The notes under the pieces were generated by a model. It made no database searches. It was not told the origin of the DNA and saw only the letters and a program-made list of their open reading frames with translations. Shown in pieces: positions 51,629-56,106 of a DNA stretch of 64,000 nucleotides (positions are counted from its first letter, which is position 1; every line of letters begins with the position of its first letter). Origin of the DNA: Methylobacter sp. Lineage in GTDB: Bacteria > Pseudomonadota > Gammaproteobacteria > Methylococcales > Methylomonadaceae. Made by a program: the position numbers and the translations under genes. The DNA lies in the NCBI RefSeq assembly GCF_004322395.1, contig NZ_SCTW01000078.1:7790-71789 (forward strand), read 5' to 3'.

Positions 51629-53086
51629 ATGAAATTCAAACCTTCCGCTATTACCCTGGCTTTAACTCTTGCGCTCTGCTCCGCTCCGCAGCAGGCTGTT
51701 GAAATTACCAAAATCGAATTGCCCGACATGGGCGATTCTTCCGGAACCTTGATTACGCCCGCCGAAGAAAAAGAGTTTGGCGAAGCATTTTTCCGCAGTC
51801 TGCATTCGCAAGTTTCCATTAATCAGGACGCTGAAATTCAGCAATACATTCAGACTATCGGTGAAAAGCTAGTCATCAATAGCGACGCACCCAGCAATCC
51901 GTTCCATTTTTTTGTGGTAATGGAAAAAGATATCAACGCTTTTGCAGGACCTGGCGGCTATATTGGCGTGAATTCCGGACTAATTTTAGTCACCGAAGCC
52001 GAAAGCGAACTGGCATCGGTGATGGCGCACGAAATTGCCCACGTTACCCAACGCCATTTGTACCGCGCTTATGAAGCCTCCAGCCGCTTATCGATCCCCA
52101 CGGCCGCAGCAACCCTGGCCGCTATTTTATTGGGCACCCAGTCTCCGGCTCTTGGTCAAGCCGCGATCGTAGCCATTCAGGCCGGCAACGTACAGTTTCA
52201 AATCGATTTTACCCGCGAGAATGAGGCTGAGGCCGACCGCGTCGGCATGCAGACCTTGGCGGGCTCCCAATATGACCCACGCAGCATGCCCACTTTTTTC
52301 GAACGCCTGCAGCAATCCAGCCGCTATTATGGACAGAATATTCCTGAGTTTTTAAGAACCCACCCGGTAACTGCCTCACGTATTTCAGATACCCGCGGAC
52401 GCGCTGAAACCTATCCTTACAAACAATATCCGGACTCGCTCGGCTATCAGTTAACTAAAGCAAAAATTCGGGTGCTAACCGACACTGACGAAACCGAAAC
52501 ACTTAAATATTTTCAATCCCGATTAACTCAAGGCACCACTGAGCAACGCGTCGTTGCCCGCTACGGGCTTGGGCTGTCTGCGCTTAATTCGCAAAAATTC
52601 AATGACGCGGAAACCATTTTTCAACAACTGAGCAAAGAATATCCAAATCAGGCGCAATATGTCGCAGCATTAGCCCGCACTGCACTGGAATCTAAAAATT
52701 ACAGCACAGCGCTTGCCCGATATAAAAAACTGACTGAGCAATTTCCGGATAACGAGGCCATTAAGCTTGAATATATTACCTCTCTGTTAAAAGCGGGTAA
52801 CGCAGAACAAGCGCGGAAAAACTTATTTCAGCTAAAGTCAAAAACCCAGCAACAACCGATTTATTCGCAACTGTTGGCTCAAGTTTATAGCGATTTAAAT
52901 CAACCTGCCGAATCTCATCGTTATCTCGCAGAATACTACTATGCGACAGGACAAACCAAGGATGCAATCCTGCAAATAAAGCTGGCTCAAAAATCCAAAG
53001 GTCTTAATTTTCAGCTATCTTCTATTCTTAATGATCGGCTCAACTTTTTTATCAATGAGGAAGAAGAGGCCAGACGCAACCGGTAA
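51629..53086 (+). CDS. bepA: M48 family metalloprotease with TPRs, BepA/YfgC
   Basis: LPDMGDS, INAFAGPGG, HEIAH, E.EADRVG, FLRTHP, C-terminal TPRs. Confidence 0.88.
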   Translation: MKFKPSAITLALTLALCSAPQQAVEITKIELPDMGDSSGTLITPAEEKEFGEAFFRSLHSQVSINQDAEIQQYIQTIGEKLVINSDAPSNPFHFFVVMEKDINAFAGPGGYIGVNSGLILVTEAESELASVMAHEIAHVTQRHLYRAYEASSRLSIPTAAATLAAILLGTQSPALGQAAIVAIQAGNVQFQIDFTRENEAEADRVGMQTLAGSQYDPRSMPTFFERLQQSSRYYGQNIPEFLRTHPVTASRISDTRGRAETYPYKQYPDSLGYQLTKAKIRVLTDTDETETLKYFQSRLTQGTTEQRVVARYGLGLSALNSQKFNDAETIFQQLSKEYPNQAQYVAALARTALESKNYSTALARYKKLTEQFPDNEAIKLEYITSLLKAGNAEQARKNLFQLKSKTQQQPIYSQLLAQVYSDLNQPAESHRYLAEYYYATGQTKDAILQIKLAQKSKGLNFQLSSILNDRLNFFINEEEEARRNR

Positions 53087-53213
53087 AAGTCTGAACGGCA
53101 GCTGAACAAAAAGCACTACTTGCCTGTCATTTTATTCATAAGGAACATCTAAAACTCTATAACAAACTGTATTTGTTATGCATTTTTAGGGCAATTAAAT
53201 TTTTCTCGATAAA

Positions 53214-53255
53214 CCTCATTTTTAAATAGACAATGAGGATTCATTTGAATAGAAT
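53214..53255 (+). promoter_or_regulatory. Predicted sigma70 promoter with overlapping inverted-repeat operator
   Basis: TAGACA (53227-53232)-17 bp-TAGAAT (53250-53255); CCTCATT-N11-AATGAGG (53214-53238) brackets the -35. Confidence 0.55.
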
Positions 53256-53259
53256 TTCA

Positions 53260-53432
53260 CCGGCTTAAGGGAGTAAGCCCGGTTTAATTACCGACTAAGA
53301 GGGGGAGTAGTCTTTTAGACTAGCTGATAATAATAATAAAATAAGTGACACTGCTTGGGTCAAGTTGTACACATTACAACTTAATAACAATAATAACAGC
53401 ACTCAACACGCCCGCTTTATGCGGGCTTTTTA
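53260..53432 (+). ncRNA. Candidate small RNA (unassigned family)
   Basis: Promoter upstream; two hairpins with GGAG loops; two AAN tracts flanking a perfect 8-bp hairpin; terminator GCCCGC-TTTAT-GCGGGC-TTTTT (53410-53431); no credible ORF. Confidence 0.55.
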
Positions 53433-53799
53433 TTGCCTGTAGAAACGCGACGGCTTTGCCAAAGAATATCGGCAAATGTAACCTTGACCAATGATTTACA
53501 ACAACTCGTCGTCCTGACTCCTCGTTCCCACACGCTGCGCCCATTTTTATACACAGACATCTACGGAGCATGCCGGTAGCAGACCTTCCAGGTTTTAAAA
53601 ACCTGGAAGGTCTAACTCGCAACGCTCTCAACAGGCAGGGCGTTTCGAATGGAACAACATGCCCCGTCCGGCTTGGTTCGAAATTTACCCGCTCATGGCG
53701 CTGGATTCCTATTTCCCGTGATAACGACTCTTGGACAGAGTTGCGCATAACCGTGAGCGCACCGCGCAGGAACCCAGCTCGAAAGACGAATAAATCCCC

Positions 53800-56106
53800 T
53801 TATATACTCAACCTTACCCCAATCCAGCCCGCCCTAGGCGCCCCCGGCGATACAAACCGGCCATCGTCAAAGCCCGGTAATACTTCGTTTGCCTGCCCAT
53901 AAACGCCGAAAGAGTTATAGTTCTTGTCGAAGATGTTATTGACCTTGCCGAATACGGCAAAATTCTTGGTCACCTTATATTCCGCCGTGGCATTGAACAG
54001 CCAATAACCGCTTAACGGTGCAGTGGTATTGGCCTCGTCGCCCCTGAAATATTTATTGCCGCTATAGGTGCCGTCAACGCCTACCGACACGCGCTTCCAT
54101 AAATCGACACTCAGATTGGCCTTATAGATATGCTCGGGAATACCGGGAATTCTGTCTCCGTTGACAACGGGAATCGCCTGAGCAGGGTTCAGCGGATTTT
54201 GAATATCGAAACCATCCATGTACCTAGCGTTTAAATAGGTGTAGTTGGTAGAAAAATGCCAGTCGTCAAACCGGCTGAATAATTGCGGATAGTTAACGGT
54301 TGTCGCTGCCTCGATACCGTAGCGGCGAGTCTTGCCCACGTTGCTGAAATAACCCTGGCTGATAATGCCGCTGGAGGCATCGCGGCGAAAAATAATGTCG
54401 TTATGATTGATGGTGTTGAAATAGCCTAGATTCCATTTTAAATCGCCTTTGCCTAACAGCTTATCCAAATCGCCCCTAAAACCGCCCTCCCAGCTTTTTG
54501 CGACTATCTGTTGCAGAGGGGGATCGGATACGAAAGAATTGGGTAATTTACACGGTGCAGTCGGATCAGCGCAGCTTAATTCCATCGGAGTGGGGGCTCG
54601 AGCCGACTCGCTATAGCTGCCATACACATTCAGGTTATCCCGGATTTGATAAGTCAAGCCCGCGGAAGGATTAAGCCGCTCAAAGGTATGCGCCCCATCC
54701 AGAGTTTTTAAAGGATCTTTTATATATTTATCTTCCATGTTGATATGACTATAGTTATAACGCCCGGCTACGGTCGCAGTCAGGTCATCGGTAATGGAAA
54801 AACTGTCAGTCAGGAACACGCCCACCGTTGAGCTGTTGGTGTGCAGACGAACCTTGGACTCATCGACAAAAATACCGCTTTGCGTTGTGCCTCGGGTATC
54901 GGTCAGCGAGCCCAGCTCGGTGTCCGAACCGAAATGCACCTCGGCATAATCGTAACTGGTGCCTACCGTCAGGTTGTTTTTATGCTTGAACAAGTCCTGG
55001 GCAAACGCCGTCTGCAACGTGCCTCCACGGCTGCGCATATAGGTTTGGCTGGTGTTGTTGGTTGCGCCTAAAACCGAATTGTCGGCAAGCACCTGATTAC
55101 TGTTTATATCGGTAACAATTGCCTCATCCTGATCGCACAGCAATGTCGGATCGGCGGCGCAGGCTGCATAATTGCTGTTATCGCCGTTAAAGGTTTGGAT
55201 TCTATTTTGCCGAAAATAGGCATTACCGCTCACTTCAACGTCATCAGCCAAATCGTAACTGCCTGCTAGCTCGGAAAAGAACATCCGAGTGACGGTCTGG
55301 TCGGGATGGGTAAATACTGCCGCCCGGTTTTGTTGCTGCAACTGGATCGGCGCGGCTCCGTTACCTTTCATATTATTATCGTTGCCGCCCAAGGTCAGGT
55401 CTAAAGAACCTTTATCGCCGCGCCAGCTCAGAGTGCCAAATGCCTGATCGGCCTTGGTCGGCGAAAAATCCCGCCAACCGTCTTCCTCAAAGTGATGCAG
55501 GTCTAAAAAATAACCCCAAGTACCGTTATTCCAACCGCTGCTTAATTCCTCCGAATGCCTGTCCCATGAGCCGCCGTAGACTTCCAACTCATGATTGGGC
55601 GCGGAAAACCCTGTCTTGGTCTTGATTGATATAGCGCCACCCAAACTGTTCAATCCATAAACCGGGTTTGACCCTGGATATAAAGCCATCGAATCAATCG
55701 CCCCTTCAGGAATCAAATCCCAATTAACCGTGTCGCCAAACGGTTCGTTAAACCGGACGCCGTTAACATAGGTGGATAACCCTTGCGGCAATCCCAACAG
55801 CGGTGAAGCGACAAAACCGCGGTAAGAAATGTCCGGTTGCAACGGATTGTTTTGTGCTTCATTGATGTGCACGCTACCCAGATAGCGGCTGATGTAATCC
55901 GCCAGAGTGATGCTTTGAGATTTTTCAAGCTGTTCGGAAGAAACGGTTTGGATATTGGCCGGTATTTTACTTGCGGCAACCCCATTACTCTGTAACGGTG
56001 TAACGCCAACAACATCGATGATACCCAGATCCAGGGGTTGGTCTTTAGCTGACACGACACCCGCTGCCAAGCCTAGCGGAAGTATCGCACACATAATTTT
56101 TCTCAT
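53800..56106 (-). CDS. TonB-dependent receptor
   Basis: Signal peptide, TonB-box-like IIDVVG, plug QPDISYRGFVASPLLGLPQG...NEPFGDTVNWDLIP, LFSGKVNNIFD-type barrel end, GAPRAGWIGVR terminus. Confidence 0.92.
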   Translation of the reverse strand: MRKIMCAILPLGLAAGVVSAKDQPLDLGIIDVVGVTPLQSNGVAASKIPANIQTVSSEQLEKSQSITLADYISRYLGSVHINEAQNNPLQPDISYRGFVASPLLGLPQGLSTYVNGVRFNEPFGDTVNWDLIPEGAIDSMALYPGSNPVYGLNSLGGAISIKTKTGFSAPNHELEVYGGSWDRHSEELSSGWNNGTWGYFLDLHHFEEDGWRDFSPTKADQAFGTLSWRGDKGSLDLTLGGNDNNMKGNGAAPIQLQQQNRAAVFTHPDQTVTRMFFSELAGSYDLADDVEVSGNAYFRQNRIQTFNGDNSNYAACAADPTLLCDQDEAIVTDINSNQVLADNSVLGATNNTSQTYMRSRGGTLQTAFAQDLFKHKNNLTVGTSYDYAEVHFGSDTELGSLTDTRGTTQSGIFVDESKVRLHTNSSTVGVFLTDSFSITDDLTATVAGRYNYSHINMEDKYIKDPLKTLDGAHTFERLNPSAGLTYQIRDNLNVYGSYSESARAPTPMELSCADPTAPCKLPNSFVSDPPLQQIVAKSWEGGFRGDLDKLLGKGDLKWNLGYFNTINHNDIIFRRDASSGIISQGYFSNVGKTRRYGIEAATTVNYPQLFSRFDDWHFSTNYTYLNARYMDGFDIQNPLNPAQAIPVVNGDRIPGIPEHIYKANLSVDLWKRVSVGVDGTYSGNKYFRGDEANTTAPLSGYWLFNATAEYKVTKNFAVFGKVNNIFDKNYNSFGVYGQANEVLPGFDDGRFVSPGAPRAGWIGVRLSI

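Follow-up and report, generated by a model that had tools for sequence, protein, structure and literature searches.

A predicted small RNA of the Methylococcales with candidate Hfq- and CsrA-binding motifs, encoded next to bepA in Methylobacter

What is encoded in the 713-bp intergenic gap that separates two convergent genes of Methylobacter sp., a bepA-like peptidase gene and a gene for a TonB-dependent receptor? The gap extends from position 53087 to 53799 of the window, i.e., of the whole 64,000-nt stretch that was analyzed (assembly GCF_004322395.1, contig NZ_SCTW01000078.1); positions below refer to the window, and the genome from which it comes is called the host genome. A reading made from the letters of the DNA alone, called here the sequence-only reading, had listed in this gap a promoter overlapped by an inverted repeat, two hairpins with GGA in the loop, two tracts of AAN triplets, a perfect stem and a GC-rich terminator. 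From these it had proposed a small RNA (sRNA) of ~170 nt that either sequesters a protein or depends on Hfq. The gap and every one of the listed elements were found in the sequence. The comparisons described here indicate that the locus is an independent, stand-alone non-coding RNA gene with its own conserved promoter and intrinsic terminator, from which a transcript is predicted, and that it represents a new sRNA family, absent from Rfam.

How widely is the element conserved? A 241-nt stretch is shared by 33 of the 36 genomes of the same genus, at 77–93% identity. Homology runs from bepA through the gap to ~53438 and, in the same proportion of the genomes (33/36), ends a few bases past the terminator; 3′ of the terminator the sequence differs between genomes. 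A covariance model, R1, was built from the 33 Methylobacter copies, and it matches the locus itself from 53255 to 53436 with 225 bits. Full-length R1 matches were found in 280 of 401 Methylococcales genomes, distributed over 53 of 64 genera and 8 families, and nearly all positive genomes carry one copy each. Only two marginal matches were obtained from ~398 genomes of other gammaproteobacterial orders. These two were rejected as homologues, as they consist only of an A-rich stretch and a similar terminator and are without the GGA module. A scan of 185,579 species genomes with an exact pattern yielded 64 loci, all in Methylococcales, including Methylobacter, Methylovulum, Methyloglobulus, Crenothrix, Methylomicrobium, Methylotuvimicrobium buryatense 5G, and Methylocucumis. 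A metagenome scan added 69 contigs that carry the RNA. Judged from these genomes, the sRNA family is confined to Methylococcales, is conserved throughout that order, and is present in most gammaproteobacterial methanotrophs.

A separate observation concerns copy number. One Methylobacter assembly (G017) contains two full-length bepA-sRNA copies, on contigs C10 and C14 (loci L014 and L035). The two copies differ from each other, and the contamination of the assembly is 3%. The probable explanation is a mixed bin and not a true duplication.

Is the RNA the product of a separate gene, or is it the tail of the bepA message? The locus could be the 3′ untranslated region (UTR) or terminator region of bepA, or yield a fragment derived from that 3′ UTR, with no gene of its own. 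In most genera of the family to which the window belongs, bepA is the immediate 5′ neighbor of the sRNA and has the same orientation, and no strong terminator is found between the bepA stop codon and position 53410. The promoter argues otherwise. In a consensus scan, its hexamers match 10 of 12 consensus positions, and within the genus the −35 and −10 hexamers are invariant and the spacer between them is variable. Across the order, the layout is a T-rich stretch followed by T(A/G)GACA-N17-TAnAAT, ~7 nt 5′ of the first hairpin. This layout is retained at loci that do not adjoin bepA; in the other families, the contexts of the sRNA are unrelated. That the same RNA and the same promoter layout are kept in families where bepA is not the neighbor speaks against a part of the bepA 3′ UTR, and we regard that explanation as very improbable. 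At its other end, the gene has an intrinsic terminator, the stem of which has the same sequence in 45 of 46 diverse homologues, with a nearly invariant loop and U-tail. To summarize, the proposal of an independent sRNA gene of ~170 nt is borne out, as a prediction, by a conserved promoter, a conserved terminator, and the covarying hairpins described next.

Folding energy by itself is a modest guide to the reality of this RNA, as the + strand is only mildly unusual (z = −2.3). It is conservation that is decisive in setting the RNA gene apart from chance. The homologues for structural analysis were the 46 diverse ones, aligned to the covariance model, and column statistics were taken over the same set. 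From 5′ to 3′, the order of elements is hairpins H1 and H2, a G-rich tract, hairpin H3, AAN tract 1, a variable middle, AAN tract 2, and the terminator (Table 1). H1 shows compensatory changes in four of six pairs within the genus and in five of six across the order. H2 is invariant in the genus; across the order all four of its pairs covary, e.g., with GC/AU at 14/10. H3 has compensatory changes in all pairs across the order. The variable middle, ~53345–53382, holds one or more hairpins, here H4. Within the genus, the stem core of H4 is retained and the loop is free. Across the order, its position is taken by hairpins of other sequences, with compensatory changes in five of five pairs in the model-fitted alignment.

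For the structure as a whole, 90.4% of the cells in the model-fitted alignment are paired, vs 74% in shuffled controls and 28–47% in slid controls, and 25 of 31 pairs show compensatory changes. Since that alignment had been fitted to the model, the count was repeated for 30 homologues, the 5′ halves of which were put into a structure-blind alignment with MAFFT. In this second alignment, 79% of the cells are paired, compared with 26–47% in slid controls, and compensatory changes are found in 14 of 15 pairs. The covariation score is 0.381 vs 0.239 in shuffles, and none of 500 shuffles scored as high. The sequence-only reading had named conservation and covariation as a check on its proposal; the outcome is a set of homologues that spans the order and hairpins that covary strongly.

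Table 1. Features of the bepA-sRNA locus, with positions in the window.
Feature	Position	Strand	Description
bepA-like M48 peptidase gene	51629–53086	+	Upstream flank of the gap
Upstream dyad	53159–53179	+	ATAAC-N11-GTTAT enclosing the conserved block CTGTATTTRTTA; ~90 nt 5′ of the predicted start
Inverted repeat (7-11-7)	53214–53220 and 53232–53238	+	CCTCATT/AATGAGG across the −35 box
Sigma-70-type promoter	53227–53255	+	−35 TAGACA (53227–53232), 17-nt spacer, −10 TAGAAT (53250–53255); T-rich stretch upstream
Predicted sRNA transcript	~53259–53434	+	~170–176 nt; ends inferred from promoter and terminator
Hairpin H1	53262–53279 (core); 53260–53282 (full hairpin)	+	GGCUUA/UAAGCC, loop AGGGAG, GGA at 53270–53272; supported by covariation
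Hairpin H2	53280–53293	+	CGGU/ACCG, loop UUAAUU; supported by covariation
G-rich tract	53297–53307	+	Unpaired AAGAGGGGGAG, order consensus GAGGRGGA; GGA at 53304–53306
Hairpin H3	53308–53322	+	UAGUCU/AGACUA; supported by covariation
(AAN)n tract 1	53327–53344	+	ATAATAATAATAAAATAA (as RNA AUAAUAAUAAUAAAAUAA); 3-nt periodic conservation
Middle segment	53350–53361	+	Unpaired ACUGCUUGGGUC, family consensus CUGCUUGRGU
Hairpin H4	53362–53382	+	Perfect stem AAGTTGTA/TACAACTT (as RNA AAGUUGUA/UACAACUU); loop varies in length and sequence
(AAN)n tract 2	53383–53398	+	AATAACAATAATAACA (as RNA AAUAACAAUAAUAACA); same periodicity as tract 1
Intrinsic terminator	53410–53434	+	GCCCGC-UUUAU-GCGGGC, then UUUUUAUU; found by terminator scan; stem to T5, 53410–53431
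TonB-dependent receptor gene	53800–56106	−	Downstream flank of the gap

The covariation also revises the first description. Of the two GGA-loop hairpins that had been drawn, H1 has a conserved A-N-GGA loop, and the second, GACTA/TAGTC at 53293–53312 with loop AGAGGGGGAG, is not a conserved fold. In this second hairpin, the 5′ arm of H3 would pair with a segment upstream; only the sequences of Methylobacter and its nearest relatives allow that pairing, which competes with the better-conserved H3. The second hairpin was rejected: it is kept in 7 of the 46 homologues, and its mean helix run, 3.2, is that of shuffled sequences (3.0), compared with 5.1 for H3. The G-rich tract is instead single-stranded between two covarying hairpins, and it is also unpaired in the minimum free energy fold. 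Its columns are the most conserved unpaired columns of the RNA.

A G-rich tract of this kind, GAGGRGGA, fits the Shine-Dalgarno consensus very well, so that translation of a very small protein might be considered. An ATG, GTG, or TTG codon is found 3–13 nt downstream of the tract in only 13 of 46 homologues, none of them conserved. These codons are mostly TTG or GTG located inside H3, and they open frames of 1–38 codons that are not conserved either. Further, the indels among homologues are not multiples of three. Because there is no conserved start codon and the indels ignore the reading frame, the RNA is taken to be non-coding, and we give the small-protein explanation next to no credence.

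Does the RNA belong to a known family? The sequence-only reading could not assign it to one, and the searches agree. A scan of the whole window with Rfam 15 at gathering cut-offs gave no match. Scans by E-value, of positions 53000–53900 at E ≤ 10 and of 12 distant homologues, returned only sub-threshold matches driven by the terminator (Trp_leader, isrK, and similar). At E ≤ 10, the CsrB, RsmY, and PrrB_RsmZ models have no match in the region. A remnant of the yybP-ykoY riboswitch had been named as the identity that would overturn the proposal of a novel sRNA; the yybP-ykoY model is not among the matches to 53000–53900 at E ≤ 10. An earlier description of the sRNA was not found in the literature, journal coverage being incomplete.

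What might such an RNA bind? The AAN tracts are considered first. Proteobacterial Hfq binds ARN repeats on its distal face and the U-tail of the terminator on its proximal face. Binding to both faces characterizes the class II sRNAs as well as RNAs that titrate Hfq, CrcZ among them. In the sRNA family, both tracts, each (AAN)5–6, show conservation with a 3-nt period: the AA columns carry 1.6–2.0 bits each and the N columns 0.4–1.3 bits, those of tract 1 lying between 0.6 and 1.2 bits. The longest ARN run is 5–7 triplets in most homologues, vs 2.8 in shuffles. Such AA-N periodicity would be the expected trace of selection for contact with the Hfq distal face; plain A/T richness or antisense pairing would not produce it. 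The features of class II are thus assembled here: two unpaired ARN tracts, a terminator with a U-tail, and an Hfq with intact RNA-binding faces. The host Hfq is a 79-residue protein, 75% identical to the E. coli core, that retains Q8, G29, I30, K31, K56, and H57, with the substitutions Y25F and F42Y. Binding of the sRNA to Hfq is, on these grounds, probable.

The 5′ half of the RNA suggests a second partner. CsrA recognizes GGA, with a preference for A(N)GGA presented in the loop of a hairpin, and a CsrA dimer bridges two sites that are tens of nt apart, typically an upstream hairpin and the Shine-Dalgarno sequence of a repressed mRNA. The consensus of the H1 loop is A-N-G-G-A, with A in 39 of 44 homologues, N free, and the G, G, and A in 37, 43, and 44, respectively. 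Along the RNA, GGA occurrences are concentrated at two places, with 37 and 80 of 138 falling in deciles 1 and 3, respectively. Over its first 48 residues, the host CsrA has the same sequence as that of E. coli, and none of CsrB, RsmY, and RsmZ was detected in the host genome with the Rfam models. Binding of the sRNA to CsrA is plausible, at somewhat under an even chance. A dual Hfq/CsrA reading is a reasonable one, because it is the GGA loop and tract and the AAN tracts that have been kept throughout the order, and they make up the two motif classes that the sequence-only reading had singled out.

We suggest that the sRNA is a protein-directed decoy that binds Hfq and probably one CsrA dimer, a reading to which we give an even chance. 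The sRNA would act in trans and work mainly through proteins. The two (AAN)5–6 tracts would lie on the distal face of Hfq, and the terminator with its U-tail would occupy the proximal face. The 5′ module would present an A-N-GGA hairpin loop and, ~30 nt further on, an unpaired GAGGRGGA that lacks a start codon. It would thereby copy the two-site layout with which a single CsrA dimer holds the leader of an mRNA that it represses. Each molecule of such a decoy leader would take up Hfq and probably one CsrA dimer, and post-transcriptional repression would be relieved or re-routed. Pairing of the family-specific middle segment with mRNAs would be possible as well.

Several results weigh against this decoy reading. 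The total of GGA is that expected from base composition, ~3 per RNA (a mean of 3 over the 46 homologues, vs 2.8 in shuffles; the mean for A(N)GGA is 2.5), and only two sites are conserved. The capacity to titrate CsrA would be low, because there are only two GGA sites per RNA and no enrichment. The density of AGGA/ARGGA, 2–3 per 175 nt, is likewise at the composition expectation. Within 330 nt upstream, a GacA/UvrY box with up to three mismatches is found at 6 of 46 loci, scattered, compared with 8.45 by chance. CsrA is universal in the order, with csrA in 63 of 64 genera, so that its presence or absence is uninformative about a link to the sRNA. The host genome contains another GGA-dense stretch, which is not conserved in the genus and is described below. 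The metagenome matches are all long DNA contigs and are uninformative about the ends of the transcript. Finally, the role of the AAN tracts could be in base pairing assisted by Hfq, not in titration.

This last point leads to the main rival of the decoy reading, that the RNA is a classical Hfq-dependent base-pairing sRNA, with the CUGCUUGRGU segment or the G-rich tract as its seed for antisense pairing with specific mRNAs and CsrA without a role. The AAN tracts and the U-tail would then do no more than load the RNA onto Hfq. The Hfq signatures are the strongest motif evidence, the Hfq-binding layout is that of the class II sRNAs ChiX and MgrR, and there is no overall enrichment of GGA. The unpaired segment at 53350–53361, moreover, is conserved within the family and is possibly a base-pairing seed at that level. 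Its conservation does not extend across the order, whereas that of the protein-type motifs does. As for the G-rich tract, a Shine-Dalgarno-like seed would be unusual, since it would pair with CCUCC-type sequences and not with ribosome-binding sites. A base-pairing sRNA would also leave the A-N-GGA loop, which sits in a covarying hairpin, without a role. We consider this rival possible but doubtful.

A second rival gives CsrA the larger part. The sRNA could be the Methylococcales equivalent of RsmY, RsmZ, or CsrB, that is, a CsrA antagonist of the Csr/Rsm type, activated by GacS/GacA (BarA/UvrY) and merely stabilized by Hfq. RsmY is known to bind Hfq. The host genome encodes CsrA and a UvrY-like regulator, and a search of the whole host genome with the CsrB, RsmY, and RsmZ models of Rfam gave nothing above the cut-offs. 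Five criteria for sRNAs that regulate CsrA have been published (Kulkarni et al. 2006, PMC1488887). Two of them, an intergenic position and a rho-independent terminator, describe the present locus. For the repetition of GGA in loops and free regions, exactly two conserved sites are found, one in the H1 loop and one in the unpaired tract; two would be enough for one CsrA dimer but are not "repeated" in the Csr/Rsm sense. The remaining two, motif density and a GacA/UvrY site, are lacking, as detailed above, and the Csr/Rsm models of Rfam find no match even at the permissive E-value. The antagonist explanation is improbable. Its mode of action may in part resemble that of an Rsm RNA, but the sRNA does not belong to the Csr/Rsm family. 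The same two shortfalls qualify the proposal of a protein-sequestering sRNA: its GGA and AAN signatures are present, and the motif density and GacA/UvrY site of a Csr/Rsm sponge are not.

Two other places in the host genome were considered in the search for Csr-like elements. The densest intergenic GGA stretch, C82:37930-38090 (locus L036 631-791), has 11 GGA in 150 nt (CAGGAUG, CAGGAAG, AAGGAUC, and others). It belongs to a long 5′ leader and is followed, ~70 nt downstream, by a sub-threshold match to the c-di-GMP-I-GGC riboswitch (53.4 bits; cut-off, 59); a weak GacA-like box precedes the stretch by ~100 nt. As 24 other genomes of the genus show no conservation of the stretch, it was set aside as a Csr-like RNA; it could represent a CsrA-binding leader or RNA specific to the strain. 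The only perfect GacA/UvrY box in the host genome, TGTAAG-N6-CTTACA, is at C43:20738-20755 (locus L037 539-556). It was rejected as a marker of a Csr RNA, as it lies beside a recombinase-like ORF (open reading frame) and neither of its flanks holds a GGA-rich RNA. Probably it serves in recombination or matches the box by chance.

What might control the sRNA? The inverted repeat that the sequence-only reading saw across the promoter exists, and some Methylobacter show a compensatory change in it, CCCCATT/AATGGGG. It is kept only partly in the genus, being lost in other Methylobacter, and it is absent from other genera. Further upstream, the block within the dyad, yTGTATTTATTA, is kept in most genera of the window's family. 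This block does not fit the GacA box, TGTAAG-N6-CTTACA, and the dyad is possibly a site for a transcription factor. A stronger form of the decoy proposal would give the dyad a part. The decoy leader would engage both regulators at once, with its 3′ half filling the distal and proximal faces of an Hfq hexamer, and would be the main, hitherto missing CsrA antagonist of gammaproteobacterial methanotrophs, receiving a methanotroph-specific input via the upstream dyad, with no GacA box. We think this form rather unlikely; if true, it would couple carbon and energy status to the CsrA and Hfq regulons.

The gap has two further features outside the sRNA gene. After the bepA stop codon, in the region 53087–53127, there is a direct repeat, CTGAAC (53091–53096 and 53102–53107; genus consensus CCTGAAC-N5-CCTGAAY), and, 3′ of it, a small hairpin, GCA-N-TGC, with a conserved TGCCTG. 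Both the repeat and the hairpin are retained within the genus, and conservation of the TTGCC part extends to many genera of the family. A regulatory site or the place where the bepA transcript ends could be represented by these elements. A perfect 33-nt palindrome, AGACCTTCCAGGTTTTAAAAACCTGGAAGGTCT, is found at 53581–53613, where the gap is variable. Near-identical copies occur at many sites in the genome (e.g., contigs C6, C12, C41, C46, C84, C122, and C155) and also in another Methylobacter genome. The palindrome looks like a repeat of the REP or MITE type.

Why does the sRNA matter? Methanotrophs are important for the methane cycle and as industrial hosts (Methylotuvimicrobium, Methylomonas), and our literature search found almost nothing on post-transcriptional regulation in them. 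The sRNA appears to be near-universal, single-copy, and order-specific, with an interpretable motif architecture. Its structure is well supported, and the motif architecture points to Hfq and, less surely, to CsrA. It is a concrete candidate for an RNA that sets the activity of CsrA and/or Hfq in methanotrophs. A CsrA like that of E. coli, an Hfq, and a UvrY-like regulator are retained in these genomes, yet the one genome tested yielded none of CsrB, RsmY, and RsmZ. If the dual-protein reading is true, the sRNA would be a compact case of one sRNA linking two global RNA-binding regulators. As alignment, structure, and covariance model exist, the RNA family is ready for curation.

How does the sRNA compare with known systems? 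Like RsmY, RsmZ, and CsrB, it is intergenic, has GGA both in the loop of a hairpin and in unpaired sequence, and ends in a rho-independent terminator. It differs from them in having just two GGA sites with no enrichment, no GacA/UvrY box, and no Rfam match. The comparison with CrcZ, made in the sequence-only reading, holds at the level of motif. CrcZ and CrcY of Pseudomonas also have repeated AAnAAnAA motifs of the Hfq distal-face type and a protein-sponge logic. In size, promoter type, and number of motifs the comparison does not hold: CrcZ is ~400 nt long, with about six separate motifs and a sigma-54/CbrB promoter, whereas the present sRNA is ~175 nt long, with two long tracts and a sigma-70-type promoter, and it has no match to these RNAs in Rfam. 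The class II sRNAs ChiX and MgrR share with it the ARN tracts and the terminator U-tail, which would imply contact with both faces of Hfq. ChiX and MgrR act via defined antisense seeds; the present sRNA has no order-wide seed and has an additional GGA module.

McaS of E. coli is, by analogy, the closest functional precedent for an RNA with dual Hfq/CsrA binding. It is likewise small and stand-alone, with Hfq-binding features and an intrinsic terminator, and it binds CsrA via a few GGA sites in unpaired or loop positions. In contrast to the present sRNA, McaS is ~95 nt long, is enterobacterial, and has known pairing targets, and the two have no homology of sequence or structure. CbsR12 of Coxiella burnetii is an RNA of ~200 nt that has a few AGGA/ANGGA motifs in unpaired parts of stem-loops and binds both CsrA and mRNAs (bioRxiv 10.1101/679134). 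It is unrelated to the present sRNA in lineage and sequence, and the abstract on CbsR12 describes no AAN/Hfq module for it. McaS and CbsR12 together would be the closest functional precedents for the sRNA of the Methylococcales: each is a short sRNA with few GGA sites that combines them with an Hfq-binding or a base-pairing side.

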